Positions 21,651-42,576 of a stretch of 42,576 nucleotides of DNA are shown piece after piece. The translations under genes were made by a program, and so were the position numbers. Origin of the DNA: a virus. The stretch lies in the IMG/VR virus record IMGVR_UViG_3300016665_000124. One strand, 5' to 3'. The notes under the pieces were generated by a model. The model worked only from the letters and a program-made list of their open reading frames with translations. It ran no database searches and was not told the origin of the DNA. Numbering within the stretch: position 1 is the stretch's first letter; every line of letters starts with the position of its first letter.

Positions 21651-21661
21651 GGCTAATCACT

Positions 21662-23423: not shown

Positions 23424-23449
23424 CCCGCAGGGTTAGTTGCAAGCAAAGG

Positions 23450-24050: not shown

Positions 24051-24184
24051 GGTCAGCAGGCGTTTGACTTAATGGTACGCCAAACCGATCAAGCCATGCG
24101 GTGGATCCATCAGGGTATTGGACAAGCCTGGCTTCAGTGCCGTTGTGATCTACAAAATCTGAAGCCTTGCGACCATCGACATAG

Positions 24185-26850: not shown

Positions 26851-26852
26851 GG

Positions 26853-27112: not shown

Positions 27113-27135
27113 GGATCCATGACAACGAAATCAGT

Positions 27136-27885: not shown

Positions 27886-27908
27886 CTATCTACTGTCATG
27901 ATGCTAGC

Positions 27909-29258: not shown

Positions 29259-29578
29259 GACATCTCAAACCGCAGCAGCTTGGCCTGATCTTCTAGGGCT
29301 TTTAGAGCAACGCTGATCTGGTTTTTATCAGATGCTCGTCGTTCATATTCTTGAAGCCGAGCAATAGCGGCAGCAAGCCATTGAGGGCGCTCTAGCTCAG
29401 CATCGAGCGCCATAAGTTGACGAGCACGAGCCATGTAATTCTCGGCTTGACGCTCACCAACATTCCATTGTTCCGAACAATGGCGAACAATTTGTGTTCT
29501 ACTGTATGCACGCAAAAGGAGATCGTAAACGGCATTTACCCGTTCGTCGATCTCCGTGTTGGTGCCTTTTCTAGCCAC
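29255..29578 (-). CDS. terS: Terminase small subunit candidate (HTH)
   Basis: 107 aa. The YSRTQIVRHCSEQWNVGERQAENYMARA HTH-like segment, directly upstream of terL. Confidence 0.55.
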   Translation of the reverse strand: MARKGTNTEIDERVNAVYDLLLRAYSRTQIVRHCSEQWNVGERQAENYMARARQLMALDAELERPQWLAAAIARLQEYERRASDKNQISVALKALEDQAKLLRFEMS

Positions 29579-30611
29579 GTATCTGAACCGGCATGATCAA
29601 GTTGGTCTGTTCCATTGTATCAAGCGGACGAATGACGATGGGTGTGGTTGCCGTATTGGCTGAAATTACCACCTCGTCACCGTCAAGGCCTTGCAGTGCA
29701 TCCAGGAGATAGGCAGCGTTCATGGCAAGGGTCGGCAGGGTGCCACAGCCGATGATGGTCTCCTCGCCGCCGGAGCCTTCGGATTCTGCGGCGACGGACT
29801 TGGCGGTGAGCTTGATGATGCCGTTACCGCTGACGATAGCGGCACGTTGAATGGCGACGATCAGGTCGTCGCGGTCGAACTGACAGGTGTGTTTGAAATC
29901 CTGCGGGACGAGGCTTTGAACCTGAGGGTAGGTGCCTTGTAGCAGACGGCAGATGATCTGCGCGCCACCTGCTAGCTGCAGGTTGGCGTAGGTGTCATCG
30001 GCTGCGATGGATAGCGGTCCATGGCATAGGCGCAGCAGCCGTGCTGGCAATACCAGGTTGAGGGTGCCGTCCCAGTTGAGCTGACGAATGGCGAGGCGAT
30101 GGCCATCGGTGGCCTCGAGGGTGAGCACACCACCTGCAGCGTGAAGGTGTACGCCTTGCAGCAGGGCCTTGGCGGCATCGTTGCTGGCGGCTGTGGTGAC
30201 GGCAGCGATGGCAGGCCCGAGGTCGATCAGGTCCGAAGGCTCGGCTGTGATGACCGGCAGCGTGGGGAAGTCTTCGGCTTCGTGCGACTGAAGGCTGTAG
30301 GAGCCGCTTGTGGTGGCCAGCTTGAGTGATTGCCCGTCTAAGGCCACCGTGAGCGGCCCTGAGCCGTCCAGGCGGCCCACGAGGTCCGCCAGCAGCCGAT
30401 GGGGCGGGCAGGCAGCCCCAGGGGCCTCTACAGCGGCCGGGATGGCGATGCTGATGCCGGTCTCCAGGTCGTAGGTGGTGAGGCGCACGGCATCGGCTTC
30501 AGCGGTGAGCAGGACACCGCTGAGGACTTGATGCTGCTTGCCGGAACCAACGGCTTTGGCGACGGCTTTGAGGGCGGCGCTGAGATCAGCGCATGAGGCG
30601 ACGAACTTCAT
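29571..30611 (-). CDS. dnaN: DNA polymerase III beta sliding-clamp homolog
   Basis: From the internal ATG: MKFVASCADLSAALKAVAKAVGSGKQHQVLSGVLLTAEADAVRLTTYDLETGISI..., ~346 aa with a three-domain length. The upstream 61 codons of the track ORF look non-coding. Confidence 0.75.
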   Translation of the reverse strand: MKFVASCADLSAALKAVAKAVGSGKQHQVLSGVLLTAEADAVRLTTYDLETGISIAIPAAVEAPGAACPPHRLLADLVGRLDGSGPLTVALDGQSLKLATTSGSYSLQSHEAEDFPTLPVITAEPSDLIDLGPAIAAVTTAASNDAAKALLQGVHLHAAGGVLTLEATDGHRLAIRQLNWDGTLNLVLPARLLRLCHGPLSIAADDTYANLQLAGGAQIICRLLQGTYPQVQSLVPQDFKHTCQFDRDDLIVAIQRAAIVSGNGIIKLTAKSVAAESEGSGGEETIIGCGTLPTLAMNAAYLLDALQGLDGDEVVISANTATTPIVIRPLDTMEQTNLIMPVQIRG

Positions 30612-30786
30612 CGGCGGATTGGGTGAGGGCAGAGATCTGGTCGTCGGTGTAGCCGCGGTATTTGCGGCAATGGCTGAGGAACAGATCGAAGTGGTCCAGG
30701 AAGTAGAGCGCGTCCTCTTCGCTGGGCTGCTGGCGTGAGCCAAGGCAGTCCACGTAGAAGGCGATGGCAGGAGAGGGCTGAGCCAT
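30586..30786 (-). CDS. 66-aa hypothetical protein upstream of dnaN
   Basis: The internal ATG of track ORF 30586..30945 gives MAQPSPAIAFYVDCLGSRQQPSEEDALYFLDHFDLFLSHCRKYRGYTDDQISALTQSADEVRRLMR. It overlaps the dnaN start by 26 nt. Confidence 0.4.
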   Translation of the reverse strand: MAQPSPAIAFYVDCLGSRQQPSEEDALYFLDHFDLFLSHCRKYRGYTDDQISALTQSADEVRRLMR

Positions 30787-30843
30787 GGGGCCATGGTGCC
30801 TGATCCATGGCGCTGATGCCATCAAATGTTGCGACTTGTGACG

Positions 30844-30945
30844 CCGGACGCCAAACCCATTGGCATGACTGGGTTCGGGCGCAAGTCGGACGCAAGCGGA
30901 CGCAAGTCGGACGCCAAAACCCTTGCAAACACTGGGCGGACGCAA
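30844..30945 (+). repeat. Left iteron array: six copies of TCGGACGCAA-like 10-mers
   Basis: Copies start at 30844, 30875, 30886, 30896, 30907 and 30936 (8-10/10 match). The four central ones are spaced 10-11 bp apart. Confidence 0.85.
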
Positions 30946-30956
30946 AAACGGGGGTT

Positions 30957-31040
30957 CCCCTTACCTTCCCTATACGTAAAAAATGTTCACCCCGTAACAC
31001 TGCCCCCCCTTTCTAAAAATCTGATTTGATTTACCCTTAT
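30957..31040. promoter_or_regulatory. AT-rich spacer between inverted iteron arrays (candidate DNA unwinding element; may also carry a leftward promoter)
   Basis: Contains an A6 run (30978-30983), a C7 run (31003-31009), ttctaaaaatctgatttgattt, and no convincing ORF. Confidence 0.5.
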
Positions 31041-31137
31041 TTGCGTCCGACAAGGCAAGAAGGTAGATAGGGACAAGGTTTTTGCGTCCGAAATTTGCGT
31101 CCGACTTGCGTCCGACACGGACGCAATTTGCGTCCGA
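31041..31137 (-). repeat. Right iteron array: five perfect TTGCGTCCGA copies plus one inverted copy
   Basis: Perfect 10-mers at 31041, 31082, 31095, 31106 and 31128, and an inverted ACGGACGCAA at 31117. CGGACGCAA-t-TTGCGTCCG forms a 9-bp-arm palindrome abutting the primase stop codon. Confidence 0.9.
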
Positions 31138-31139
31138 CG

Positions 31140-33503
31140 TCATGCCCATGAATCCAGCCTGAGACCCACCAAGAGACGATCACGACTCTTTCCGCCGCCT
31201 CTGTCGGACGCAAGTTTCGGGAAGATCTGCCGCAATGCCGGCATCAGTAGACGCGGTGCCTTGACCGTCCGATCAGCCGGCGGATCCATCAGCCAGCGCC
31301 CACCAGCGTCGATATAACCTTCCTCGCGATACCAGTTCTGTAGAGCGTCCCAAACGCGTTTGCAAGACACTTGTGCATTTTCATCCCAGGTCAATCCGAC
31401 GGCATCGCAGAAATCCCAAAGGTGACAAGATCCACGCCTTACATCTTGCATAGCCTGGTTGCCGGTGGCGTAGTCGATACCATCCGAAACACTGAGCGCC
31501 ATGCCTTCAAGAAGCCAATTTAAGAACGATGGGCAGATTTGCTCTTGGATGAAAGATGGGTCGTCCTTTAGCCTTGGATCTGCCTGTAGATGCGTCGGCT
31601 CTGTTGGTGTTGCCATGAAAGTTTTGCGGAACTTAAACACATGGAACCGCGTCTCAATGGCAGCCTGCTCACCAGTCAGTGATGGATCCTTGTTCAAATT
31701 GAACACAAACAGCACGGACGGTACAAACTGAGACTCCTGCACACCCTTCAACTCGTAAGACAATTCCTCGCCGCTGATTGCGGCTTTAAGTGATTGCAGG
31801 TTGTCAATACTGACGAATTGCGAGTTTTCACTGGACCAATTAACCGATGCACCACGAAGCGGCGCGATTGGAAACTTGCGGCCTTGGTCGTACTGCCGAA
31901 AATCAGCCAGAGTGCAAGAGGTGAAATTGCGACTACCGAGCGTGTCTCGCAATGCCGTGCGGATGGTGTCCTTGCCGTTGCTGCCTTCACCGATCATCAG
32001 CACTGCGCGAGGACGGCCTCTGGTGGCGCGATATTTGGCAAGATCAAGGCCGCTGCCAAGGATGCGCTGGATAGTGTCACGGTCACCAGGCTCTACGGCT
32101 TCCAGCAATCGCCATAGGTGCTGTGCGTTGGCTTGAGGGTCGTAGTCATAGTCGGTGACGTAGGTAAAGGCCACATCCGGGTTATGCGGTGTGAAGGACA
32201 GGTCGAGCTTGCGGCCTGACCATGACCAAGACACCACGCCATTGCGGCAGTTAATGGCATTCGATGGGTTGACATCAACCGGCTTGAGGAGCCGCCGCAT
32301 CCATGCCAGGGCTTCATCCACATATTTGGGACGGCGCCATGGGTAGACCGGTTCCGACTGCTTTTCGGTTCTGACATGCAGCAACGAGAGAAAAGCCGCC
32401 AGCTCAGGCGCTATCTCCTCGTCGGGCCTTGCTTGGTAATGCGTGCCATTCCAGCAATGGAGTACACCGTCAACACAAATCCAGCGGTCACGGGGATGCT
32501 TGAAGACATGGGTGACAGCAAGATCAAGCCATTCGGTGCCGGCCTTGTCATAGAGCTGCAGGTTGACGACCTCACCATCTGATGCCTGCCGACGCGGCCG
32601 AGGCATTGGCGTCGCTGGCCTCCAGCCGTGATGCCGCGCCCAGTACCAGAAGGTGCCAGCGGTGATGCGCTCACCACCTGAGGATGCGATCTGCTCAAGG
32701 CCTTGCCATTGCGGGCTGTGCTGCTGCATCAGCTCAATGGCGAGGTCGGCGCTACCGCAGGCTTGGATCAGCCCCCAGAAGATGTTGCGGTAGATGTGGT
32801 AAGTGCCGCTACCTGGTGTGCGTGGCGGGATAACAGCAAGGGCATCACGGATGTCGCTAATGCTGCGCTCTACTGGTTCGGTGTGCTGCTGTGCTGGCTT
32901 CTGGTGCTGATAGAAGGCCTCGGACGGCAGGACCGCTTCGATGTCGGCAACGGTGTAGCGATGGCCAGCGCTAGTGACCATCTGGCACGGATCACCGAGA
33001 CTGCCATCAGCCATGGCGTAGTAGCTGCCGGGCAACCGCATGACGCGCGAGGCGTTTTTGATGCTGCGGTCGGCATCGCAATAGTCGAGTAGTCGCGCCT
33101 GCACCAGCTCCCAGTGAGCCGGTGTAATCGGATCGGTAAGAACCCAGTAGCTGTGGATGGACTTGCCGCCGGTATTGATCTGAAACGTGGGCTCAGGCAA
33201 CTTGAGCGACTGCCATGCGGTGAGCTGCCATTCGCGCGGTCGGTCGTCCCATTCAGCAAAGAAGGCACGACAGGCGGTGATGTCGGCATTGGTGTCACCG
33301 CCATCGTTGATGACGACGTAGACGCCACGACCTTCGGCTTGCCATTGCTCGATGAGCTTCTTGGAGGCACCACCTTTGCGGCCCTTGTCGGTGCCCTTGT
33401 CTGGGTGGTCGCGATGGAGGAAGGCGCGAAGACGGATGGCGCCGGCGGGTTTGCCGAGCAGGGCAATGAACCGACGAGCTTCATCAAAGTCGATTGGTTT
33501 CAT
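31140..33503 (-). CDS. Bifunctional primase (prim-pol/RepB'-like N-terminus) and SF3 (P4/D5-type) helicase
   Basis: 787 aa. The N-terminus has GVYVVINDGG...AFFAEWD...GGKSIHSYWVL (primase-polymerase-like), and the C-terminus has Walker A VLMIGEGSNGKDT in a P4/D5-like NTPase context. Confidence 0.8.
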   Translation of the reverse strand: MKPIDFDEARRFIALLGKPAGAIRLRAFLHRDHPDKGTDKGRKGGASKKLIEQWQAEGRGVYVVINDGGDTNADITACRAFFAEWDDRPREWQLTAWQSLKLPEPTFQINTGGKSIHSYWVLTDPITPAHWELVQARLLDYCDADRSIKNASRVMRLPGSYYAMADGSLGDPCQMVTSAGHRYTVADIEAVLPSEAFYQHQKPAQQHTEPVERSISDIRDALAVIPPRTPGSGTYHIYRNIFWGLIQACGSADLAIELMQQHSPQWQGLEQIASSGGERITAGTFWYWARHHGWRPATPMPRPRRQASDGEVVNLQLYDKAGTEWLDLAVTHVFKHPRDRWICVDGVLHCWNGTHYQARPDEEIAPELAAFLSLLHVRTEKQSEPVYPWRRPKYVDEALAWMRRLLKPVDVNPSNAINCRNGVVSWSWSGRKLDLSFTPHNPDVAFTYVTDYDYDPQANAQHLWRLLEAVEPGDRDTIQRILGSGLDLAKYRATRGRPRAVLMIGEGSNGKDTIRTALRDTLGSRNFTSCTLADFRQYDQGRKFPIAPLRGASVNWSSENSQFVSIDNLQSLKAAISGEELSYELKGVQESQFVPSVLFVFNLNKDPSLTGEQAAIETRFHVFKFRKTFMATPTEPTHLQADPRLKDDPSFIQEQICPSFLNWLLEGMALSVSDGIDYATGNQAMQDVRRGSCHLWDFCDAVGLTWDENAQVSCKRVWDALQNWYREEGYIDAGGRWLMDPPADRTVKAPRLLMPALRQIFPKLASDRGGGKSRDRLLVGLRLDSWA

Positions 33504-33676
33504 GCCTGCTCCTGCGACTTGCTGGCCGGCAGGATGCCGTCACGATGGAATCGCATGGCCTCCTGGATCACGAGGCGCAATGTTGCAGATCGTGACAGGC
33601 CAGCTGGCCGCCAGGAATCAAGCCATTGCAGCTGCTCTGCGGTCAGTTGCACGGATAACGGATGGGCGAGTGGCAT
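33500..33676 (-). CDS. Ribbon-helix-helix (CopG/Arc-like) regulator, first gene of the leftward arm
   Basis: From ATG 33676: MPLAHPLSVQLTAEQLQWLDSWRPAGLSRSATLRLVIQEAMRF, a beta-strand plus two helices. The longer start at 33727 would bury the divergent promoter region. Confidence 0.6.
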   Translation of the reverse strand: MPLAHPLSVQLTAEQLQWLDSWRPAGLSRSATLRLVIQEAMRFHRDGILPASKSQEQA

Positions 33677-33693
33677 GGCGCCTGCGGTGACGC

Positions 33694-33721
33694 TTGACAG
33701 GCTAGCGGGTTCCGCTAGAGT
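33694..33721 (+). promoter_or_regulatory. Candidate rightward promoter (TTGACA - 16 nt - TAGAGT)
   Basis: Perfect -35 at 33694-33699 and a 4/6 -10 at 33716-33721, 25 nt upstream of the ATG at 33746. A mirrored leftward TTGGCA-17-TAGCCT lies on the other strand. Confidence 0.5.
33702..33718. promoter_or_regulatory. Operator-like perfect palindrome CTAGCGG-gtt-CCGCTAG within both promoter spacers
   Basis: 7-bp arms seen directly. Outer arms CGCTTG (33691-96) and CAAGCG (33725-30) extend the symmetry. Confidence 0.6.
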
Positions 33722-33745
33722 TGCCAAGCGTCACGCCCAGGTTCA

Positions 33746-34174
33746 ATGGAGATAGCCCCATGCCCTAAGTGCGGGCAAGAATCGCCGTTCAAGCTCAGAC
33801 CAGACACGCAGCACCATGGCGAGATTCGCTGCCCTACACATGGGCATCTGTGGATTTCAAAACCGACTGAACTAAAGACTCCACGTCGCAAGATTAATCG
33901 CGAGTTATTTGAGCTGGTGCCTGGCGATATGCAAGAGTTTTGCTGGACATGCTTAAGGCATCGTGACTTATTGAAAACGATTAGGCCGTCAGTGTCACTG
34001 CAGGCACATCATATTTTTGAAGCGCAACATGGCGGTATAGATCATCGCGACAACGTTCAAATTCTTTGTGATGAATGCCATGCTGCCGTACATCGAACAC
34101 GTGGGCAGTTGCATCGTTATGACTCAATCTCTAATTTTCAAGCATTTGTACGGCACGAACGACTTACGCGATGA
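33746..34174 (+). CDS. HNH endonuclease with an N-terminal zinc ribbon, first gene of the rightward arm
   Basis: CPKCG...CPTHGH, then CWTC...LQAHHIFEAQHGGIDHRDNVQILCDECHAAVH (HNH motif). Confidence 0.8.
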   Translation: MEIAPCPKCGQESPFKLRPDTQHHGEIRCPTHGHLWISKPTELKTPRRKINRELFELVPGDMQEFCWTCLRHRDLLKTIRPSVSLQAHHIFEAQHGGIDHRDNVQILCDECHAAVHRTRGQLHRYDSISNFQAFVRHERLTR

Positions 34175-34428
34175 CCACCACCATCAGCATTCGCCGCTTA
34201 CTTGAGCTGCGCATTAGCCATGGCGATCAATTGGCATTGGATTATCTGAGCCTTGCAGCATTGCTGCGCTATGCGCCTGGCGTGGCGTGCGTACAGCAGT
34301 TGCAGCAGAACTGGAATGTCAGCCAATCAAGCGTGAGCCGTCGAGTAGCGCACCTGGCGACGGCAGGATTGATTGAGGTGACCAATGGCAGTGGTGCGTA
34401 TCACGTCCATGAATTGAAACTCCTATGA
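34171..34428 (+). CDS. Small winged-helix DNA-binding protein
   Basis: 85 aa. NVSQSSVSRRVAHLATAGLIEV is a recognition-helix plus wing pattern. ATGA overlaps at both ends. Confidence 0.6.
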   Translation: MTTTISIRRLLELRISHGDQLALDYLSLAALLRYAPGVACVQQLQQNWNVSQSSVSRRVAHLATAGLIEVTNGSGAYHVHELKLL

Positions 34429-35777
34429 ACCTCCGCCCATACCAGCAGCAGCTGGTGACTGACATCCGCCTGCAGTACCAGCTGGGTCATAGGCGTGTGC
34501 TGGCGGTGCTGCCGACCGGCGGGGGCAAGACCGTGATTTTCAGCCACATCGCCCAATCCGCCGCGCGCAAGGGCAACCGCGTCTGCATCTTGGTGCATCG
34601 GCAGGAGCTGCTGGATCAAGCCAGCCGCAACCTGCAGGCGATGGGTGTTGCGCATGGCCGCATCCAGGCTGGCCGCGGCATGGACCTAAGCCATGCGGTG
34701 CAGGTAGCAAGTGTCGGCACTATCGCGCGGCGGCTGCACCTACTGCCGCGTGACTTCCTGCAGCTGATCGTGGTCGATGAGGCCCACCACACCACGGCCG
34801 GCACATGGTCAAAGGTGGTGGAGCACTTTGCATCCGCGCACCTGCTGGGTGTGACGGCAACGCCGATCAGAGGTGACGGCCGCGGCCTTGGTGAGCACTA
34901 CCAGTCCATGGTGCTGGGGCCCAGCGCCGCATGGCTGACAGACCATGGATTCCTGGCCCAGGCCAAAGTGCTGGCACCACCTGGCTTCAATGGCGCCGGC
35001 CTGCGCAAGCGGATGGGTGACTACGACACCAAGCAAGCCGAGCAGCGCGTCACGGAGATCCATGGCGACTGCTACAGCCACTACTGCAGGCACCTGAGTG
35101 GCCAGACGGCGATCGCGTTCTGTTGCTCAGTGGCCCATGCCGAGGCTGTGGCGGACCTGTTCCGGCGGCAGGGCATTGCTGCTGCGAGCATTGACGGCAG
35201 CATGGATGGCCCAACACGTCGCGGCCTGCTGGAGGACCTCGGCGCCGGGCGGCTCAAGGTGCTGACCAGCTGTGCGTTGATCGGCGAAGGCGTTGACGTG
35301 CCATCTGTTGGTGGCTGCATCCTGCTGCGGCCCACGCAGTCGGTTGCCCTGCACCTGCAGATGATCGGCCGATGCCTGAGGCCCAGTGGCGACAAGGTGG
35401 CGGTTGTGCTTGACCATGTCGGCAACACGTTGCGGCTAGGCCACCACCTGGAGGATCGCGACTGGAGCCTTGATGGCGTGAAGAAGCGCGATCGTGAGGC
35501 AGCACCAAGCGTCAAGGTCTGCCCTAAGTGTTTCGCCACTGCTGCCAGCACCGCCCAGGCCTGCCGCGAATGCGGACATCAATTCCGTGCTGAGGTGCGT
35601 GAGCTGAAGGTGGTTGAAGGCGAGTTGCAGGAGGTCGGATTCCGCAGCCGCTACCGCGAGCAGGGCAAAGCCCAGAGCCTGCAGGACTTGATCCACCTAG
35701 GCCAGAGCCGTGGCTACAAGAACCCGGTAGGTTGGGCGAAACACGTCCTTTATGCCCGGAGCCTCAAAGGCAACTGA
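34425..35777 (+). CDS. SF2 DEAD/DEAH-box helicase with a C-terminal zinc ribbon
   Basis: Walker A LPTGGGKT, DEAH box VVDEAHH, TATP (motif III), and a later CPKCF...CRECGH. Confidence 0.85.
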   Translation: MNLRPYQQQLVTDIRLQYQLGHRRVLAVLPTGGGKTVIFSHIAQSAARKGNRVCILVHRQELLDQASRNLQAMGVAHGRIQAGRGMDLSHAVQVASVGTIARRLHLLPRDFLQLIVVDEAHHTTAGTWSKVVEHFASAHLLGVTATPIRGDGRGLGEHYQSMVLGPSAAWLTDHGFLAQAKVLAPPGFNGAGLRKRMGDYDTKQAEQRVTEIHGDCYSHYCRHLSGQTAIAFCCSVAHAEAVADLFRRQGIAAASIDGSMDGPTRRGLLEDLGAGRLKVLTSCALIGEGVDVPSVGGCILLRPTQSVALHLQMIGRCLRPSGDKVAVVLDHVGNTLRLGHHLEDRDWSLDGVKKRDREAAPSVKVCPKCFATAASTAQACRECGHQFRAEVRELKVVEGELQEVGFRSRYREQGKAQSLQDLIHLGQSRGYKNPVGWAKHVLYARSLKGN

Positions 35778-36111
35778 GCAACAAATCCAGCAGCACATCC
35801 GCCTGGCCTGCAGCAACGGACCGGTGCGCCTGTTCCGCAACAACACCGGCACGCTTCGGGACCAGCACGGCCGGCCTGTGACGTTCGGCTTGGCCAAGGG
35901 CAGCGCCGACCTGATCGGCTGGACCACGCGCACGATCACACCCGAGATGGTGGGCCAGCAGGTGGCGGTCTTCACCAGCATCGAGGTCAAGAGCGCCACG
36001 GGTCGCATCAGGTCCGAGCAGCAGCAATGGCTGGAGGCGGTGCAGGCCGCTGGTGGAATCGCTGGAGTGGCGCGCAGCGTGGAGGATGCCAGAGAATGTG
36101 TCGGTTTGTGA
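35752..36111 (+). CDS. VRR-NUC domain nuclease
   Basis: GSADLIGW...IEVKSATGRIRSEQQQWLEAVQAAGG matches the PD-(D/E)XK VRR-NUC pattern. Pairing with an SF2 helicase is typical. Confidence 0.75.
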   Translation: MPGASKATEQQIQQHIRLACSNGPVRLFRNNTGTLRDQHGRPVTFGLAKGSADLIGWTTRTITPEMVGQQVAVFTSIEVKSATGRIRSEQQQWLEAVQAAGGIAGVARSVEDARECVGL

Positions 36112-36189
36112 CAGGCACATGCGAGTGATCCATGGTGCACGCATACTGGGTGCATGGGCAGCGATGCCCACTACCCCGAACCTAGAAAC

Positions 36190-36330
36190 ATGAAACTGTC
36201 TGAAAAGCTTGCCGAGCTGATTGCCCAGCTTGAAGAATCTGATCGCCGCTTCCGCCAGGAAGTGGATGGCCTGATCAAGGCCGCTGATCAGATTATTGAA
36301 ACGGTAGATCGAATGATTGAGGAAGACTAA
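36190..36330 (+). CDS. 46-aa coiled-coil micro-protein
   Basis: Hand-translated MKLSEKLAELIAQLEESDRRFRQEVDGLIKAADQIIETVDRMIEED. A strong terminator follows 6 nt downstream. Confidence 0.45.
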   Translation: MKLSEKLAELIAQLEESDRRFRQEVDGLIKAADQIIETVDRMIEED

Positions 36331-36336
36331 TCCACC

Positions 36337-36358
36337 GGGGCCCTGCGGGGCCCCTTTT
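36337..36358 (+). terminator. Rho-independent terminator
   Basis: GGGGCCC-tgcg-GGGCCCC forms a 7-bp all-GC stem with a 4-nt loop, followed by TTTT (36355-36358). Confidence 0.7.
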
Positions 36359-36368
36359 ATATATTGAC

Positions 36369-36575
36369 ATGACTGCTTCTGCCATGCGCCGCCTGCGCCT
36401 GCGCCGCGCCGGCCTGCTGCCTGCCCTACCGGACTGCCCCACCTGCGGCTGCCACGTGCGCAGCTCCAGGACGGCGCCGCTCTGCTCGCGCTGCTGGCGG
36501 CTGTCGCCTGCAGGACGCGAGTGGAACCGCCAGCGGATGGCGGCGCGACGCGTCCGAGAGTGTGAAGACATGTGA
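36369..36575 (+). CDS. Arg-rich zinc-ribbon-like small protein
   Basis: 68 aa with CPTCGC...CSRC. Confidence 0.4.
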   Translation: MTASAMRRLRLRRAGLLPALPDCPTCGCHVRSSRTAPLCSRCWRLSPAGREWNRQRMAARRVRECEDM

Positions 36576-36734
36576 ACACCCCTTGCACGGTGCCGGCTCC
36601 ATAGGGCACACTGAAGGGACGAGGGAGACGCCATGCCACCTCGCTAAATCCGGCAGACCGCGGGAACAGCTACACGACCGCGTTACCCAGACGAAGCCGA
36701 GGGGGTGCAAGGCCCCCAACCAACCCACCTCCCT

Positions 36735-36917
36735 ATGACACCCGACGAAATCAACGCCACCTTGATGACCGCTTGTCGGTTTGGCGGTGGCTTTATTGCA
36801 CGGCTCGCTGAGGCTGGCCTGCACGCTGATCCGAACAATCGGCAGCGTCTTCTGATTGCTTTCCCTGAGTTAATTGATGACTACGGCCCAACCACAACCT
36901 TCTATCTCAAACGCTGA
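36735..36917 (+). CDS. Hypothetical protein
   Basis: ATGAC start (MTPDEINATLMTACRFGGGFIARLAEAGLHADPNNRQRLLIAFPEL...). The track ORF starts earlier on a GTG. Confidence 0.5.
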   Translation: MTPDEINATLMTACRFGGGFIARLAEAGLHADPNNRQRLLIAFPELIDDYGPTTTFYLKR

Positions 36918-37695
36918 TTATCACGCTGATCCAGCAGTCAGCGCATCTCATCTCAAGGCCATCAGCATCAGCCCATTGCACTACTGGGCGCGATACGTCG
37001 ATCCAGATCGCATCACGCCAGAGCCGACGCCTGCCATGCGCTTGGGCAGCATGGTCCATTGCACCGTGCTGGAGCCGCATGAGCTGCCGCATCGGTACCT
37101 GCGTGTGCCTGATGGCATCGACCGTCGCACCAAGGACGGCAAGGCCGCATGGGCTGAGCTAGAGGCCAGCGGCAAGGAGCTGATCAAGGCCGCCGACTGG
37201 GATATGGCCATGGCCATGGCTGAAGCCTGCTGGCGGCATCCTGCAGCGGGCAAACTGCTGCGGCAGCCAGATGGCCTAGCCGAGCTGTCGTTCTGGTGGT
37301 CTGATGGTGATCTGCGCTGCAAGTGCCGACCAGACCTGCTGGCTAGTGATGTGATCGTTGATCTCAAGACGACCACCGATGCCAGCCCTGCAGCTTTCGC
37401 TCGTGCTGTGGTCGGCTTCGGCTACCACCTGCAGGCTGCTCATTACCTCGCCGGCACTGGCGCTGCACGGTTTGTCTTCCTTGCTGTCGAGAAGGCGCCG
37501 CCCTATGCGGTGGCTGTCTATGAGTTGGATGCAGCAGCACTTGCCACTGGCGAGCAGCTGCGGCAAGAGGCCATGCACATAATCCGCCAATGCCGCCAGG
37601 CTGACCACTGGCCTGGCTACAGCGATGACTGCCAAACCCTCAGCCTGCCTAAGTGGGCAGTGCCAACTGACTTGATTACTCCTGACCAATTCTGA
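36874..37695 (+). CDS. PD-(D/E)XK exonuclease (RecE / exonuclease VIII C-terminal-like)
   Basis: ISNADYHADPAVSASHLKAISISPLHYW, CRPDLL...VIVDLKTT and YHLQAAHY motifs, with a RecT-like gene immediately downstream. Confidence 0.75.
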   Translation: MMTTAQPQPSISNADYHADPAVSASHLKAISISPLHYWARYVDPDRITPEPTPAMRLGSMVHCTVLEPHELPHRYLRVPDGIDRRTKDGKAAWAELEASGKELIKAADWDMAMAMAEACWRHPAAGKLLRQPDGLAELSFWWSDGDLRCKCRPDLLASDVIVDLKTTTDASPAAFARAVVGFGYHLQAAHYLAGTGAARFVFLAVEKAPPYAVAVYELDAAALATGEQLRQEAMHIIRQCRQADHWPGYSDDCQTLSLPKWAVPTDLITPDQF

Positions 37696-38453
37696 TGACC
37701 TCAGCACTTGCGCTCTGGACGCCAGAGCAAACCCAACTGATCAGCAGCACCATTGCACCGGGCTGCAGCAATGACGAGCTGCGGCTATTTGCCTACGCGT
37801 GCCAACGCACCGGGCTGGATCCGTTCAGCAAGCAAATCTACGCCATCAAACGTGGCGGCAAGATGACCATCCAGGCCGGCATCGACGGCCTTCGCAGCAT
37901 CGCTGAACGCACAGGCCAGCTTGATGGCTCTGAAACGTACTGGTGCGGGGAGGATGGCGTCTGGGCTGACGTATGGCTCGGCAGCAAGCCACCCGCCGCG
38001 GCCAAAACCATCATCCACCGTAAAGGCAGTAGCCATCCGTTCGTCGGCGTGGCCCGGTTTGCGGACTACAACGCCGGCCAGGGCCTCTGGTCCAAGATGC
38101 CGGCGGCCATGATCGCCAAGTGCTCCGAAAGCCTGGCACTGCGCAAGGCTTTCCCTGCTGATCTCAGCGGTGTCTACAGCACAGATGAGATGCAGCAGGC
38201 TGAGGTGGAGCCGGTGACGGTTACCGCTGAGCCTGCACCTGCACTCACAGGCCCCAGCAAGACGTTTGTCGCTGGTCAAGGTGCGGTCGCCAAGATCAAG
38301 ACCATGGATGACCTGGCCCGCGTGCAATCGCGCCTGCAGGCTCGCGTGGATTCTGGTGACCTAACGACCACCGAGCACGAAGAGCTGCAGATCCTGCTGC
38401 TCAACAAAGAAGCCGACCTGATCAAGGCTGATTCCGATCCCTTCGAAGACTGA
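37695..38453 (+). CDS. recT: RecT/Bet-family single-strand annealing protein
   Basis: LDPFSKQIYAIKRGGKMTIQAGIDGLRSIAERTGQ and KCSESLALRKAFPADLSGVYSTDEM blocks. Confidence 0.8.
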   Translation: MTSALALWTPEQTQLISSTIAPGCSNDELRLFAYACQRTGLDPFSKQIYAIKRGGKMTIQAGIDGLRSIAERTGQLDGSETYWCGEDGVWADVWLGSKPPAAAKTIIHRKGSSHPFVGVARFADYNAGQGLWSKMPAAMIAKCSESLALRKAFPADLSGVYSTDEMQQAEVEPVTVTAEPAPALTGPSKTFVAGQGAVAKIKTMDDLARVQSRLQARVDSGDLTTTEHEELQILLLNKEADLIKADSDPFED

Positions 38454-38456
38454 TTC

Positions 38457-38810
38457 ATGTCTCTTTATGCAACCGGCGTAGTTCGCATCATCAGCGACCT
38501 ACAGATGAAAACCTTCGATAGCGGCGCCATGGTCTGCAACTTTGCAGCCGGCATCCAAGAAGGCAAAGACAAAAATGGCGACTACATCAATAACGTGATT
38601 GATGTAGAGGTTTGGAACAAAGCCGCTGAGGTGATCTACGGCAAACTGAAGAAAGGAGACTGCCTTCTGCTTAGCGGCAACATCCGTCGCCAGGACTGGA
38701 TCGATAAAGAAACTGGCAAGAAGCGATCAAAGCATCTGCTGTCCGCTAGCCGGTTTGAGTTCCTGCCGCGTGCAGCTGGCGAAACCTCGTCACCCATGGA
38801 TGACTTCTAG
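38457..38810 (+). CDS. ssb: Single-stranded DNA-binding protein
   Basis: 117 aa, OB-fold-like pattern (VEVWNKAAEVIYGKLKKGDCLLLSGNIRRQDW), and an acidic C-terminal tip PMDDF. Confidence 0.75.
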   Translation: MSLYATGVVRIISDLQMKTFDSGAMVCNFAAGIQEGKDKNGDYINNVIDVEVWNKAAEVIYGKLKKGDCLLLSGNIRRQDWIDKETGKKRSKHLLSASRFEFLPRAAGETSSPMDDF

Positions 38811-38910
38811 AGGTCCATCAGCAACAGCTCAAGCCGCGCGATCTCATTAATCGCAGCTTGAATCATCTCCTGCTGTCGGTACGTTTGCCGTAGCAGGATT
38901 GCTGCAGCCT

Positions 38911-38943
38911 TGCCGGCATTAGGGTCCTTCTCTAATGCCGGCA
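38911..38943. promoter_or_regulatory. Perfect 12-bp inverted repeat TGCCGGCATTAG-(9 nt)-CTAATGCCGGCA
   Basis: Seen directly, about 100 nt downstream of ssb, followed by TTCTTCC. May be a terminator-like hairpin or a protein-binding site. Confidence 0.6.
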
Positions 38944-39039
38944 TTCTTCCTCAATCTTGAACAACCGTTCTGGTGGAATGTCAACCATCAACCAATCGCC
39001 CATTTTCATTGCGTTATCGCAAGTCATCTCAGTCTGCCT

Positions 39040-39288
39040 ATGGAATGCCCAAGCTGCCAGAACCGATGGATCAAGGTTGTAGAAACCAATACCCGCGAAC
39101 GCGATTACATCGCCCGCAAACGCCAGTGTGCCGCCTGCGATCACACCTGGTTCACCGTGGAGCAGATCGTCAGCCCTGACTCAATCACCTGGCGCAGGGC
39201 CGGCGGCACTGGCGGAAGGCCAGTGTTACGAAAAACAACAGCACCGCCCGACGTGCCCGAGATACCTGGCACCATTGAGCACAGCTGA
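39040..39288 (+). CDS. Four-cysteine zinc-ribbon protein, paralog of the 1435/1498 ORF
   Basis: MECPSCQNRWIKVVETNTRERDYIARKRQCAACDHTWFTVEQ. The track ORF starts at 38935, but that N-terminal extension looks non-coding. Confidence 0.6.
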   Translation: MECPSCQNRWIKVVETNTRERDYIARKRQCAACDHTWFTVEQIVSPDSITWRRAGGTGGRPVLRKTTAPPDVPEIPGTIEHS

Positions 39289-39322
39289 GCAGGACCGCTC
39301 AGCGCCACACCACACCCCAACC

Positions 39323-39559
39323 ATGGAACTACTTACTTCTGACTGGGCACCACACATCGAGAAGGCCGTGCGCGCCATCGCTGCTGTGGTCGTCGCCGTC
39401 TATGTCGCCGGGCTCATTACCGGCACCTTCGTCCACTGGGTCAATGACTGCATCGCAGGAAAACAAGAGTGGGCAGTGCCCACCCTTGTGATCAGCCCTA
39501 CACCCGCTTCCGCAATCCAGAAGCCCCTCAAGGCTAAGGCCCGAGGATTCAAGTCATGA
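39323..39559 (+). CDS. 78-aa single-pass membrane protein
   Basis: The internal ATG gives MELLTSDW...AIAAVVVAVYVAGLITGTFV..., with a basic C-terminus and ATGA coupling downstream. Confidence 0.5.
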   Translation: MELLTSDWAPHIEKAVRAIAAVVVAVYVAGLITGTFVHWVNDCIAGKQEWAVPTLVISPTPASAIQKPLKAKARGFKS

Positions 39560-39657
39560 GGATCATCGGCTTCCTGCTGCCAGTGCTGCTTGTCGCTGGC
39601 CTCGTGGTCCACAGTGCAGACCGCTGCATTCCAACCCATCAAAACGCCTGCCGATGA
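39556..39657 (+). CDS. 33-aa membrane or signal-like micro-protein
   Basis: Hand-translated MRIIGFLLPVLLVAGLVVHSADRCIPTHQNACR, with ATGA overlaps at both ends. Confidence 0.4.
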   Translation: MRIIGFLLPVLLVAGLVVHSADRCIPTHQNACR

Positions 39658-39968
39658 AACGCCTACTTCTTGCCTTGCTCCTGCTTGCTGCACCTGCCAG
39701 CGCTAGGCCTGTTACCGCCACCGTCTATGACGGCTGGTATCACGGCCGTGTTGCCTACTGCGGCGGCACCTATCGCCACTGGGGAATCAGCGCGGCTCAT
39801 CCATGGCTGCCATGCGGCACCAGGGTTCGCGTGAGCCATCGCGGTAGGTCGCTCACTGTGCCGATCACAGACCGCTGCGACTGCTCATCCATTGACCTAT
39901 CCGCTGGTGCGGCCTATCGCCTTGGCGTGCCGCTTGACGGCATTGCTCGCGTATGGATCTCGTATTGA
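39654..39968 (+). CDS. Secreted RlpA-like double-psi beta-barrel (DPBB) protein
   Basis: Signal peptide MKRLLLALLLLAAPASA, then ATVYDGWYHGR..YCGG....ISAAHPWLPCGTRVRVSHRGRSLTVPITDRC....IDLSAGAAYRLG matches the RlpA/DPBB pattern. Confidence 0.65.
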   Translation: MKRLLLALLLLAAPASARPVTATVYDGWYHGRVAYCGGTYRHWGISAAHPWLPCGTRVRVSHRGRSLTVPITDRCDCSSIDLSAGAAYRLGVPLDGIARVWISY

Positions 39969-39971
39969 GCC

Positions 39972-40145
39972 ATGGCACTACCTGCTGACTACACGCGTTG
40001 CATGGGCCTCAGGCCCGAATGCCCACAACGCAATGACTGCGCCAGGTTGCGCGACATCCCCGATAGCTACGTCATCAGCTGGGTGCACAACATGAACCCA
40101 GACCACAGCCAGCCCTGCCCCTGCTTCATCCCGTGGAAGCCATGA
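39972..40145 (+). CDS. 57-aa Cys-rich protein
   Basis: Hand-translated MALPADYTRCMGLRPECPQRNDCARLRDIPDSYVISWVHNMNPDHSQPCPCFIPWKP, ATGA-coupled downstream. Confidence 0.45.
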   Translation: MALPADYTRCMGLRPECPQRNDCARLRDIPDSYVISWVHNMNPDHSQPCPCFIPWKP

Positions 40146-40318
40146 AGATCCGCATTGCCATTGCCACCAACCCGCAAGGCGGGGAATGGGTGGCCTATCG
40201 CACCTGGAACGAAAGCCCATGCCGTGCTGCCCAGGCCGCCCTAGAAACCCTGCAGGAGACCGTCGCTGATCCTGAGTGCGCTGCACCGGTGCTGCGATGG
40301 GTGGAGGTGGAGGTATGA
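40142..40318 (+). CDS. 58-aa hypothetical protein
   Basis: ATG inside track ORF 40133..40318 (MKIRIAIATNPQGGEWVAYRTW...), with ATGA overlaps at both ends. Confidence 0.45.
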   Translation: MKIRIAIATNPQGGEWVAYRTWNESPCRAAQAALETLQETVADPECAAPVLRWVEVEV

Positions 40319-40695
40319 ACCATCCCATCACCCCTCCGCCGGAGTTGGTGGAAGAATGGATTGCCCAGGTCTGGCATGAAGGCACCCCTGTGCGAGTGGG
40401 TGCCAGTGACATTCACATCGCCACCCAGGCCGCTCGCTGGGGGGCTGACCAGGAGCTGGAGGCGTGCTGTGAGTGGCTCGTAAAAGAAGGCTGGTTCCGA
40501 TACGAACACGAAGCAGTGCAAGAACTCCGCGCCGCCCGCCGCCCCAAGCCACCGAGCTTGGCAGAGCAAGGGCTAGCAGCACTTGATCGTCTTAGTAGCG
40601 GATCACTATCACTATGCACCAATCCCGTCACTGATACGCACACCATCCGCGCCGCCCTTGAGCGGCTGCAAGAGCTGGAACAAAGCAATGACTAA
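40315..40695 (+). CDS. Hypothetical protein carrying the shared C-terminal module AARRPKPPSLAE...IRAALERLQELEQ
   Basis: GGAGGTGGAGGT lies upstream of the ATG. The C-terminal ~45 aa parallels the 41541 ORF and includes a 36-nt identical DNA block. Confidence 0.6.
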   Translation: MNHPITPPPELVEEWIAQVWHEGTPVRVGASDIHIATQAARWGADQELEACCEWLVKEGWFRYEHEAVQELRAARRPKPPSLAEQGLAALDRLSSGSLSLCTNPVTDTHTIRAALERLQELEQSND

Positions 40696-40867
40696 AGAGT
40701 CAGGAAAGACTTTCTTTTGGGCACCAAAGACAAAGGTCATTTGCCAAAAGCACGGTACCCACACCCACACGATCCAAAGCACTATCCAAGGACATGAGGG
40801 CTACTGGTGCATGATCTGTGCACTGGAAAAGCTCGGAGAACCACTACCAACAACCAATGATGACTGA
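40688..40867 (+). CDS. 59-aa putative zinc-binding protein
   Basis: MTKESGKTFFWAPKTKVICQKHGTHTHTIQSTIQGHEGYWCMICALEKLG has a C..H...C..C pattern. Confidence 0.4.
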   Translation: MTKESGKTFFWAPKTKVICQKHGTHTHTIQSTIQGHEGYWCMICALEKLGEPLPTTNDD

Positions 40868-41045
40868 CTTCTACATCGACTCAGACACTGGCCGCATTGG
40901 TCAGTTCTGGTGGGTCAACTCCAACAACGTTGACCGCCTATGGATGGGCGACATATCCCCTTGGGTCATGAAGTGGTGCATCCGCTGGGGCACCTTTGGC
41001 TTTGGCCGCAAGGTTCGCATTTACATGGAGCCTATTAATGACTGA
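40857..41045 (+). CDS. Trp-rich hypothetical protein (MMTDF start)
   Basis: 62 aa from the internal ATG of the track ORF. It overlaps the upstream stop. Confidence 0.4.
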   Translation: MMTDFYIDSDTGRIGQFWWVNSNNVDRLWMGDISPWVMKWCIRWGTFGFGRKVRIYMEPIND

Positions 41046-41115
41046 TTTCCAATCAACACTTCTATTTGCAGTTGCTTGTTTAATTATCACAGCCTGGTTT
41101 TTTAAGCATGACTAA
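41038..41115 (+). CDS. 25-aa hydrophobic micro-ORF (MTDF start)
   Basis: Hand-translated MTDFQSTLLFAVACLIITAWFFKHD, with 8-nt overlaps at both ends. Confidence 0.3.
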   Translation: MTDFQSTLLFAVACLIITAWFFKHD

Positions 41116-41335
41116 CGCCAGCCGTGAACTGCTTTCACAAATTATCGCTGCCTTCGGTGGCGTTGCGATTGTTGTCATTATCGCAATCACTTTCACAATG
41201 ACTTCCAAAGATTACTCTCGAACAACCACAATCCAAAAACTCTATAAGGTGAATTTGGAATGCCGCCAAACTGCAAGTGCAGTAGGACGTAACGCTGATA
41301 ATGTTTGTGGACCCGTTCCGAGAAATTTTCAATGA
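41108..41335 (+). CDS. 75-aa membrane protein
   Basis: TM segment IIAAFGGVAIVVIIAITFTM, ATGA-coupled downstream. Confidence 0.5.
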   Translation: MTNASRELLSQIIAAFGGVAIVVIIAITFTMTSKDYSRTTTIQKLYKVNLECRQTASAVGRNADNVCGPVPRNFQ

Positions 41336-41544
41336 CTGAACTTTCGTCCCAAGCCCAGGCAGTGTTGGACGCCGCATATGAAGAAATTGATTATGTCCCA
41401 CAAAGACATGTTCGCTGGGCTGCCGCCGCCGCCCTGCGTGCTGCTGCACGCCAACTGCGTGAGGCGTACGTCAATGAAACATACGTCGAGCCTGCTGATG
41501 ACTGGCTTGATTCCATCGCCGACGAACTGGAGAACGCACAATGA
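41332..41544 (+). CDS. Hypothetical protein, paralog of the 1124 ORF
   Basis: MTELSSQAQAVLDAAYEE...WAAAAALRAAARQLRE, ending ...ELENAQ like the 55 ORF (...KENAQ). Confidence 0.55.
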   Translation: MTELSSQAQAVLDAAYEEIDYVPQRHVRWAAAAALRAAARQLREAYVNETYVEPADDWLDSIADELENAQ

Positions 41545-41575
41545 CCACCGACTTCCGTGCGCTTTGCGCTGAGCT
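41529..41575 (+). repeat. 47-nt direct repeat partner of 369-415
   Basis: One mismatch (41549 C versus 389 T). Spans the ENAQ-stop / MTTDFRALCAEL-start junction. Confidence 0.9.
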
Positions 41576-41978
41576 GGCAGACGAGTTGACTCAATTCAAT
41601 GCTTGGTACATCGAAGACAACGGCTACGGCTTGCCAGCCCTTGAGGCACTGCTGCGCCGCAGCGACGCCGCCTTAGCACAGTCAGATGAACTGGCTGTGC
41701 CCGAGGGCAGGGAACCAGCTAAGACGGAGCTACGGCAAGTCTTTGATGACCACTCTGGTTACATCAATGACGAGCAGGTGATGTGGTGGGGCGACTTTCA
41801 CGCAGCCGCCCGCCGCCCCAAGCCACCGAGCTTGGCAGAGGAGGCGCTGAAAGCACTGCAGGATCAAATCGACACATCTTTCAAAATATCTTCCGAAGCG
41901 CAAGAACGTGCTAACACCATACGCGCCGCCCTTGAGAGGCTGAAGGAGCTGGAGCAGCTTTCCGACGATCAAGGCTGA
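41541..41978 (+). CDS. Chimeric family member with the MTTDFRALCAEL N-module and the AARRPKPPSLAE...ERLKELEQ C-module
   Basis: 145 aa. It combines the N-terminal module of the 55 and 381 ORFs with the C-terminal module of the 40315 ORF. Confidence 0.65.
   Translation: MTTDFRALCAELADELTQFNAWYIEDNGYGLPALEALLRRSDAALAQSDELAVPEGREPAKTELRQVFDDHSGYINDEQVMWWGDFHAAARRPKPPSLAEEALKALQDQIDTSFKISSEAQERANTIRAALERLKELEQLSDDQG
41814..41849 (+). repeat. 36-nt perfect direct repeat, partner at 40531-40566
   Basis: gccgcccgccgccccaagccaccgagcttggcagag is identical in both ORFs. Confidence 0.9.
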
Positions 41979-42016
41979 GTCGTTAACCCTGCCACTTCCC
42001 CTTACTACTTTCTCTC

Positions 42017-42334
42017 ATGGAAACCTCTGTCACTCAAATCCAGATCAACGGAGTTGATTATGTTCGCGCTGATTCCGTTCTTGGCACCAATCCCAATGGC
42101 AATCGCGCTGTTGTGGTGGTCGATCGCGGCTGGATCTTTGCCGGTGATGTTACCCGCGAAAATGGTCGTATTCGCTTGAGCCGTGCGCTGCATGTGTTCA
42201 AATGGGATTCCATTGGCTTTGCCAAGATGGTTGAAACGGCAAATGCGGATCTGCGGCCTATTGCTGATGTGGATCTTCCGGAAGGCGCTGAGATTTTCTG
42301 CGTGCCGGTGTCTGATAATTGGGGGCTCAAGTGA
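42017..42334 (+). CDS. Hypothetical protein
   Basis: 105-aa ORF (…RAVVVVDRGWIFAGDVTRENGRIRLSRALHVFKW…). Its stop overlaps the next ATG (TGATG). Confidence 0.55.
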   Translation: METSVTQIQINGVDYVRADSVLGTNPNGNRAVVVVDRGWIFAGDVTRENGRIRLSRALHVFKWDSIGFAKMVETANADLRPIADVDLPEGAEIFCVPVSDNWGLK

Positions 42335-42576
42335 TGACTGAATTGATGCGCCCTGTTAGCTACGGCGACGGCTTCGGCGACGGCAACGGCGACGGCTTCG
42401 GCGACGGTTACGGCTACGGCTACGGCTACGGCTACGGTTACGGCTACGGCTACGGCTACGGCTACGGCTACGGCTACGGCTACGGCTACGGCGACGGTTA
42501 CGGTTACGGAAACGGCGACGGAAACGGCTACGGCTACGGCTACGGCTACGGCTTCGGCTTCGGCTGCGGCGACGGC
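42334..42576 (+). CDS. (X-Gly)36 Tyr/Gly-rich repeat protein, 5' part (continues at nt 23-58 after the junction; about 92 aa in total)
   Basis: MTELMRPVS followed by 36 strictly alternating X-G dipeptides (X = 21 Y, 7 D, 4 F, 3 N, 1 C), then NCSPHRNRRAK after the junction. Confidence 0.55.
   Translation, partial: MTELMRPVSYGDGFGDGNGDGFGDGYGYGYGYGYGYGYGYGYGYGYGYGYGYGDGYGYGNGDGNGYGYGYGYGFGFGCGDG
42409..42492 (+). repeat. Hexanucleotide microsatellite (TACGGY)14
   Basis: 14 consecutive TACGGC/TACGGT units. Related GAC/TTC/AAC-GGC units extend the periodicity from 42361 to the window end. Confidence 0.95.

Follow-up and report, generated by a model that had tools for sequence, protein, structure and literature searches.

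Accessory regions are where the host-takeover and counter-defence genes of phages evolve, and their shuffling has been detailed for few groups, through PeSLs (promoter-early stem-loops) in T4-like phages and through relaxed recombination in lambdoid phages. Previous studies of T4-type phages described PeSL cassettes: in an early region that is hypervariable, short repeats flank non-essential ORFans, each repeat finishes with the Shine-Dalgarno (SD) site and the start of the downstream gene, and recombination between copies explains insertions, deletions and replacements in close relatives and predicts mini-circles (Arbiol et al. 2010, PMC2839356; Comeau et al. 2014, PMC4122927). According to the modular theory, lambdoid phages carry linker sequences, which are conserved boundary stretches between non-homologous modules, and encode a recombinase of the RecT/Red-beta type that makes sub-gene exchanges of ~100 bp (De Paepe et al. 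2014, PMC3945230). Such recombinases handle short, diverged homologies efficiently, exchanges of ~100 bp within genes are frequent, and phage genomes are usually without repeats (PMC3945230). Here, we describe a 47-nt direct repeat in the gene array of the uncultured virus IMGVR_UViG_3300016665_000124 from IMG/VR (42,576 nt; this whole stretch of DNA is called the window below). Functionally, these two systems come closest to the locus, which resembles them in the respects just listed apart from the usual lack of repeats, and the repeat is a genuine, recently copied, recombination-prone junction.

A pattern search of the window found the 47-mer exactly twice, at 369-415 and 41529-41575, with 46 of 47 bases alike, while 100 shuffles gave an expectation of 0 matches; the sole difference is T/C in the second Thr codon (ACT vs ACC), which is synonymous. 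When the genome was compared with itself by BLAST, as the initial annotation had proposed, the 47-mer ranked first among its dispersed repeats, and the near-identical direct repeats with one mismatch that had been reported there are borne out by both searches. The remaining dispersed repeats (36 nt, perfect; 38 nt, 92%; 29 nt, 97%; 40 nt, 90%; 24 nt, 96%) all lie in the same gene array, from ~40.5 kb round to 1.3 kb. Junction copy 1 (41529..41575, plus strand) is canonical: it holds the last four codons and stop of gene A1 (ENAQ-stop), an SD site GGAG, an ATGA overlap, and the first 12 codons (MTTDFRALCAEL) of gene B1. Junction copy 2 (369..415, plus strand) is non-canonical, with the ENAQ-stop tail of an A-type gene placed on gene B2, followed by the start of gene B3; the same order of stop codon, SD, ATGA overlap and first 12 codons holds here as well. 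Partial copy 3 (55..87, plus strand) provides the start and the N-helix module of B2 (MTDFRALCAEL) and overlaps the stop codon of a Gly-Tyr (GY) repeat peptide gene; it has AGGAGG instead of GGAG as its SD, is without the ENAQ tail, and differs by one mismatch and one absent Thr codon, the match reaching back to the ATG at 55. Its 21-nt core (67-87), which had been noticed before as a further occurrence, is identical to 41556-41576. Similarity among the copies drops abruptly at both repeat edges.

The two long copies lie on either side of the joined ends of the window. Bases 1-22 are the same as 42555-42576, which gives a true length of 42,554 bp and a circular or circularly permuted assembly, and the window ends inside a hexanucleotide tandem array (42359-42576; 218 nt, period 6, ~36 copies). 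Across this join, the 47-nt copies are 1,394 bp apart from start to start with 1,347 bp in between, and they bracket the four open reading frames (ORFs) named in the initial annotation (41541-41978, 42017-42334, the GY-repeat ORF 42334..58, and 55-384). An independent assembly (ENA ERZ27292652, k141_628501, 42,695 bp) crosses the window ends with the gene order unchanged, differing at 2 of 13,393 positions; since the arrangement is the same there, the repeat layout is not an assembly artefact.

The identity of 46/47 exceeds what constraint on the peptide would give, because a tail has been grafted, the haplotype is rare, and the edges are abrupt. The 12 upstream bases provide B2 with an A-type tail: B2 ends in ...EYLAIKENAQ-stop, its homologue in contig L120 in ...EQLPPLGNK-stop, and A-type genes in ...LAIA[TA]ELENAQ-stop. 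The codon haplotype CGT-GCG-CTT is present in all three copies of the window and absent from the 117 other instances scored; it recurs in the close relatives L144 and L158 and in the more distant contig L027. Comparison of these sequences indicates that the junction was recently copied by homologous exchange in this genome, and the ENAQ graft and the haplotype support the earlier suggestion of recent recombination or gene conversion with DNA identity beyond that of the surroundings. Conservation at the protein level only is true mainly between genomes; within this genome, the copying of DNA is indicated.

The repeat belongs to a mosaic gene family. A degenerate scan found DFRALCAEL encoded in >120 viral (IMG/VR) contigs, nearly always 2-3 codons after the start and then followed by unrelated sequence. 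A profile search of 1.84 billion representatives returned 2,538 proteins at E<=1e-3 and 702 at E<=1e-10; the 2,538 are representatives at 50% identity and therefore a lower bound for the number of family clusters. In 114 of the 145 top-match proteins the motif begins at residue 3-5; among 124 profile matches, R, A, L, C, E, and L hardly vary. B-type proteins consist of the N-helix, a variable stretch of 20-35 residues, a RARAALAQPEPQGPTDEEL segment, and then swappable units, which are bounded by ARAVLARWGRPAIEPVPV..., or by AARRPKPPSLAEQAL...IRRALEQL, or by a Cys-rich unit. The A-type form, M[TS][DE]LSPAAQAVL...AAALRAAAD...IA[ATD]ELE[GN]xx-stop, normally precedes B-type genes. The joint ...ELENAQ-stop/MTTDFRALCAEL was found in L143, L144 (twice), L148, and L158 (twice), and junction copy 1 is identical over at least 52 nt in L144 (gene start 6756); judging from these contigs, this is the standard A-to-B joint of the lineage. 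Several in-frame joints between modules exist in this very large family, and the repeat is one of them; it is not a boundary peculiar to one cassette, as it was first described.

An AlphaFold2 (AF2) model of B1 consists of three helix-hairpin units with little packing between them, at moderate confidence (pLDDT 70.7, pTM 0.34). The motif, which is predicted to form the opening helix of a helix-hairpin N-domain, lies inside helix 5-23, and a second helix spans 31-51. The peptide is strongly selected in thousands of proteins that are not otherwise related. No structural neighbour of this model was found below E=0.3 with Foldseek in PDB and BFVD. Scans assigned no Pfam or PHROG family to the N-helix domain, and searches with B-type proteins gave only phrog_32006 and one DUF551 match. 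The C-terminal unit of B1 and the gene at 40297-40695 match phrog_32006, and one family member matches Pfam DUF551 (both of unknown function); these families differ from the one described here in covering only some of the swappable C-terminal units and not the N-helix domain. Homologue labels such as antirestriction protein, DNA glycosylase, and CobN are apparently spurious automatic names and were not used. The N-helix domain was absent from cultured phages (blastn and tblastn, 50,697 phage records), and no paper containing the motif string was found in the literature. In cellular genomes, 3 of 21 pattern matches are genuine N-terminal motifs, the rest being internal chance matches; the carriers are Aphanothece cf. 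minutissima, a cyanobacterial metagenome-assembled genome (MAG), and a short contig binned as a gammaproteobacterial MAG. In the 71.9-kb contig L156 (IMGVR_UViG_3300047550_004845), A and B genes with the ELENAQ/MTTDFRALCAEL joint (2622-3722) stand among genes apparently unrelated to this phage group, which reflects either cross-lineage transfer or chimeric assembly.

Codon choice within the motif was also recorded, from the window copies (61-86, 390-415, 41550-41575) and 117 instances from L001-L120. Compared with the genome, the second Ala is GCT in 92% vs 21%, Glu is GAG in 92% vs 57%, Arg is CGA in 28% vs 6%, and CGG does not occur at all. In the window, GCTGAGCT was counted 10 times vs 3.0 expected.

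Modules of the family have been reassorted extensively. Among 120 loci, the upstream class ...RRALEQL-stop was joined to 12 downstream classes and ...IAAELEGG-stop to 10, while one downstream class was found with 4 different upstream classes. Close relatives were fetched through their identical SSB protein, which is present in 23 other contigs, and ten such contigs were compared. Among these, L146 matches the window at 100% over a 7.6-kb overlap and represents the same strain; the backbones of the remaining contigs are 91-96% identical. Where relatives extend into the interval bounded by the DPBB and MarR-like genes, they have other genes in it, and L150 is without window 40693..1370 altogether. 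Given backbones of 91-96% identity, the flanks in the array have been replaced and have not merely diverged. The ends of homology blocks recur at 415/41575, 369-370, 1227-1229, 41802-41811, and 40560-40587. In L158, a different B gene stands behind the homologue of A1, and in L156 an A1-like gene is followed by the distal half of B3. The expectation that the region is variable in related genomes is supported by these hypervariable arrays with breakpoints at motif edges. As for the presence or absence of the flanked segment, which the initial annotation had suggested comparing, the arrays do differ, but no relative has the segment or lacks exactly it.

The array begins directly after the SSB gene, crosses the window junction, and ends at ~1.9 kb; it consists of small, mostly translationally coupled genes. 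Upstream on the plus strand lie the genes of a RecE-like, exonuclease VIII-type exonuclease (36874..37695; PDDEXK, DUF3799; phrog_412 exonuclease VIII, E=1.8e-93), a RecT-like single-strand annealing protein (37695..38453; phrog_2780, E=1.7e-65; PF03837), and SSB (38457..38810), and Pfam RecT, PDDEXK_1, and DUF3799 are annotated in relatives. The account that we favour, and hold to be probable, is that the junction modules of the mosaic family serve as in-frame recombination homologies, were recently copied here, and are substrates for RecE, RecT, and SSB. A conserved coding sequence would then double as a short in-frame homology for phage recombination. The junction would have been copied onto the B2-B3 boundary by homologous exchange or gene conversion, giving the identity of 46/47; after RecE-type resection, RecT would anneal the 47-nt direct repeats to each other, either in a single molecule or between concatemers or co-infecting relatives; and the 1,394-bp interval would be deleted, duplicated, or exchanged. 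The deletion joint would be expected to read ...GCCGACGAACTGGAGAACGCACAATGACCACYGACTTCCGTGCGCTTTGCGCTGAGCTACTGGCTCACGCC..., and the joint of the reciprocal mini-circle or duplication ...TGCAATTAAGGAGAACGCACAATGACCACYGACTTCCGTGCGCTTTGCGCTGAGCTGGCAGACGAGTTG.... Because the repeat spans the stop, the SD, the start, and the N-helix, every product would keep its genes, reading frames and translation signals intact, and the same applies to the in-frame 36-nt repeat of the array. The earlier proposal of RecT-mediated deletion, duplication, or exchange stands insofar as recombinase genes adjoin the array upstream (36874-38810); the role of RecT and the events, none of which was observed, are what we infer, and so are the enzymes of the pathway, in which direction and when the junction was copied, and what selective advantage, if any, this brought.

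Several points weigh against this recombinational account. Synonymous sites vary between genomes, and most conservation of the motif is at the peptide level and needs no role in recombination. The mean difference between copies within a genome is not lower than that between genomes (4.27 vs 3.98, p=0.76, with relaxed motifs and more loci), and distinct sub-lineages of the motif coexist within one genome. L144 has the same junction haplotype, so both window copies were possibly inherited and not converted here. Neither the exact deletion, which would join A1 to B3, nor a duplication was found among relatives and metagenome contigs, and it is by analogy with phage systems of E. coli that this RecT is taken to act on 47-nt homologies. 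A B3-specific 24-mer gave 0 matches in metagenome contigs, and the lineage-specific junction pattern only 4 further loci, one of them on the same contig as L143. A first test of concerted evolution (p=2e-5) was discarded as biased, as it considered exact-motif copies only. In favour of copying, pairs that are nearly identical (<=1 difference in 27 nt) are commoner within genomes than expected (32% vs 8.7%, permutation p=0.004; p=0.023 without the window), a statistic that was picked after the negative mean test. From the negative mean and the enriched near-identical pairs together, we claim only occasional recent copying, not general homogenisation.

Alternatively, the three paralogues might simply need the same N-terminal helix, with DNA similarity as a by-product. 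Over 120 instances, the nine residues are fixed while the codons vary (F TTC/TTT 75/45; R CGC/CGT/CGA 46/40/34; first Ala GCG/GCC/GCA/GCT 53/39/23/5), and this synonymous variation between genomes means that the peptide is the main target of selection; the near-invariance of R, A, L, C, E, and L in the profile matches and the AF2 helices 5-23 and 31-51, read as a hairpin, fit this explanation too. However, pure peptide constraint leaves unexplained the 12 identical non-homologous upstream bases, the rare haplotype, and the abrupt edges, as well as the reassortment of flanks at 91-96% backbone identity, and is rather unlikely. The repeat might instead be conserved at the RNA level as a regulatory nucleic-acid element, such as a portable translation-initiation cassette or operator, the target of a translational repressor, or a determinant of mRNA accessibility. 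The three contexts have no RNA structure in common (folding z-scores of 0.63, -1.24, and -1.68, with different folds), a full Rfam scan gave no match, no promoter- or terminator-like site overlaps any of the three copies, and the third copy and many metagenomic copies have other SDs and other upstream sequences. Such an element is decidedly improbable, although the repeat contains an SD and a start codon, the array genes are coupled through ATGA overlaps, and the 3' half of the motif shows an abnormal choice of codons.

It has also to be considered that MTDFRALCAE(L) is a leader or targeting peptide, which sends diverse payloads to the capsid or to a host partner, with the repeat marking a hypervariable counter-defence locus; this would be compatible with a recombination handle. 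Some ten invariant residues at the extreme N-terminus of otherwise unrelated small proteins are what such a leader would look like, in parallel with the T4 internal proteins Ip1-3, which are alike only in their N-terminal leader (PMC12373910, PMC3012670). But the genes stand in the early, replication-side operon; head assembly looks SPP1-like (portal, gp7-like protein, scaffold, major capsid protein), and a scan of head-module ORFs detected no prohead protease; and the prediction places the motif within a folded helical hairpin with an equally conserved RARAAL helix, which would not be detachable. We therefore consider a leader unlikely. A chimeric join or collapse of the assembly at the repeated motif is scarcely credible: the window does end within the 218-nt hexanucleotide array, yet the assembly was made with a k-mer of 141, longer than the 47-nt repeat, and the independent 42,695-bp assembly bridges the junction with 2 single-nucleotide polymorphisms (SNPs) in 13.4 kb.

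One further idea joins the leader to recombination, and we offer it as possible though doubtful. The MTDFRALCAEL module may be a dual-purpose leader, at once a peptide handle for partner binding or targeting, common to thousands of otherwise unrelated beads-on-a-string proteins of helical hairpins, and an in-frame DNA recombination site, by which RecET in phages of picocyanobacteria would shuffle cassettes and domains of a fast-evolving host-interaction or counter-defence repertoire through the conserved linker-coding motifs DFRALCAEL, RARAALAQPEPQGPTDEEL, ARAVLARWGRPAIEPVPV, and AARRPKPPSLAEQAL. If this were true, the locus would be a cyanophage analogue of the T-even ip/CTS (capsid-targeting sequence) locus at sub-gene resolution, and the codon fixation TGC-GCT-GAG-CT would reflect selection on DNA.

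Contrary to the initial annotation, the 1.4-kb interval between the long copies is not a discrete cassette, and is composed of the B1 body, the unit of g105 and the GY peptide, and B2. All genes of the array described below are on the plus strand. A1 (41332..41544) is an A-type gene of 70 aa (...AAAALRAAA...IADELENAQ-stop), the one with a homologue in L158. B1 (41541..41978, 145 aa) is a four-part mosaic made of the N-helix, a WYIEDNGYG variant of the hairpin, a LRQVFDDHSGYINDEQVMWW unit, and a phrog_32006-type tail, PPSLAEEAL...IRAALERL; the phrog_32006 match covers only its C-terminal 50 residues (E=6e-5). B2 (55..384, 109 aa) combines the N-helix and a RARAAL hairpin with a body homologous to the L120 gene and the A-type tail. 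B3 (381..1127, 248 aa) is an apparent fusion of two B-type genes, with the fusion point at ...CTGAGCT, the 3' motif edge. Its residues 167-190 (HAAFNTYAVDECHHNLLERARAAL) stand directly behind the N-helix in L144, L005, L035, and others, residues 167-248 stand as a gene body of their own directly after the N-helix in L144, L005, L023, and L035, and window 874-950 matches L144 5275-5351 at 94.8%. B3 reads as a fusion of two B genes because L144 joins the N-helix straight to this B3-internal module. Neither B2 nor B3 matched phrog_32006, and exact-protein look-ups of B1, B2, B3, and g105 returned the same genome only.

Downstream of B3 lie the second A-type gene, A2 (1124..1402, 92 aa; ...VAAALRAAADQVVPE...IAAELEGHV-stop), and a 64-aa ORF with a degenerate N-helix (1395..1589; MSKDLRAALTDLIHDL...LIRARILL), the same sequence being the C-terminal module of a B-type gene in L143. 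Two NrdR-like zinc-ribbon ORFs (PF22811) were seen at 39040-39288 and 1435-1761; the latter overlaps ORFs 1395-1589 and 1589-1906 in other frames, and the relative L143 is apparently without it. The phrog_32006-type gene at 40297..40695 matches over the full profile (E=2.7e-28) and shares with B1 the perfect 36-nt repeat and the 40-nt repeat at 90% (40640-40679 and 41914-41953). The 36-nt direct repeat (40531-40566 and 41805-41840) encodes AARRPKPPSLAE in frame in both genes, with the copies 1,274 bp apart, and the other assembly of the same genome has a SNP within one copy, at window 40563. A strong terminator-like hairpin with a 14-bp stem (38911-38943) lies between the SSB gene and the array start.

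The gene g105 (42017..42334, 105 aa) is a widely conserved phage gene outside the mosaic family, with 2,625 homologous clusters; its top matches, 72-88% identical, come from contigs that belong to other types of phage. Next to it downstream stands the gene of a GY/GD-repeat peptide (42334..42576, then 23-58 after the 22-nt overlap; 92 aa in total), whose 3' part within 1..58 ends in ...GNCSPHRNRRAK-stop. Short GY peptides also follow g105 homologues in L160 (4001-4346) and L161 (4001-4420); the peptide ends are conserved (M..RPVxYG ... CSPHRxRRxK) and the repeat core is very variable in length (total 92 aa here, 32 aa in L161). On these sequences, g105 and the GY peptide look like a conserved two-gene unit.

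PHROG and Pfam scans describe a lambda-like siphovirus. The minus strand carries the genes of terminase, portal, gp7-like protein, scaffold, major capsid protein, tape measure, gpM/gpL/gpK/gpJ-type tail proteins, endolysin, and dCTP deaminase; the early operon on the plus strand encodes helicase, VRR-NUC nuclease, RecE-like exonuclease, RecT, and SSB. In the tail module, the adjacent ORFs 18019-18438 and 18441-18857 (139 and 138 aa) have in common a 122-nt repeat (72% identity) and are probably tandem paralogues. DNA matches to cultured phages (blastn and tblastn against the same 50,697 records) are weak and to Synechococcus phages only, the few genuine motifs in cellular genomes are mainly picocyanobacterial, and the phage probably infects picocyanobacteria.

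Both the family, with its at least 2,538 clusters at 50% identity and almost invariant 10-residue N-terminus, and the pairing of the 105-aa protein with a Gly-Tyr repeat peptide are unannotated and without a cultured representative. The locus points to another way of shuffling in abundant uncultured cyanophages: short conserved coding modules, among them the stop/SD/start joint and the mini-domain linkers, would act as in-frame homologies and let genes and sub-gene units be exchanged without frame breakage. If the handle hypothesis is true, the motif could be used for mining variable effector repertoires of cyanophages from metagenomes.

Compared with known systems, the locus is unlike integron cassettes: the copies are direct repeats without hairpin potential, attC features are lacking, and no integrase was found in the scanned ORFs or in the precomputed Pfam annotations of the same and related contigs (a scan not exhaustive below 100 aa). 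Nor is it a diversity-generating retroelement, as the single T/C mismatch is synonymous and no PHROG or Pfam scan or annotation of related contigs gave a reverse transcriptase. Polymorphic toxins swap their C-terminal parts at conserved pre-toxin motifs (VENN in CdiA, PxxxxDPxGL in Rhs) and possess orphan modules. There, as here, the coding sequence of a short peptide motif bounds a variable module, provides homology for in-frame replacement, and goes with arrays of alternatives, whereas here 12 N-terminal codons are conserved, the genes are phage-borne, and a toxin/immunity role is not indicated.

The T4 internal proteins that bear a CTS (Ip1-3, the T-even ip loci) are also diverse small proteins with only a ~10-residue N-terminal leader in common, encoded in a polymorphic hotspot (PMC12373910, PMC3012670); the present phage differs in that no prohead protease was found among its scanned head-module ORFs and its motif is predicted to be a structural helix. 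A hypervariable region with motif-bounded differences is shared with PeSL cassettes, yet the motif here is coding: PeSLs are intergenic, with a sigma-70 promoter and a terminator stem-loop, while the repeat of the window is mostly coding and its peptide is conserved. No sigma-70-like promoter overlaps any copy, the nearest (332-360, 9/12 matches) being upstream of copy 2 only, with counts not above shuffle expectation, and neither the folding z-scores given above nor a site scan revealed a stable stem-loop or terminator at the repeats. Two features of homology-facilitated exchange by Rad52-like (RecT/Red-beta) recombinases are present, as RecT and a partner exonuclease are encoded and mosaic breakpoints coincide with short conserved stretches. 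Unlike in lambdoid phages, in-frame coding homology is repeated several times in one genome, and the host is probably cyanobacterial. The locus is best described as a variant of homology-driven modular shuffling, with coding, in-frame junction and linker modules of a hyper-mosaic protein family as its probable handles, adjoining recET-ssb in uncultured cyanophages.

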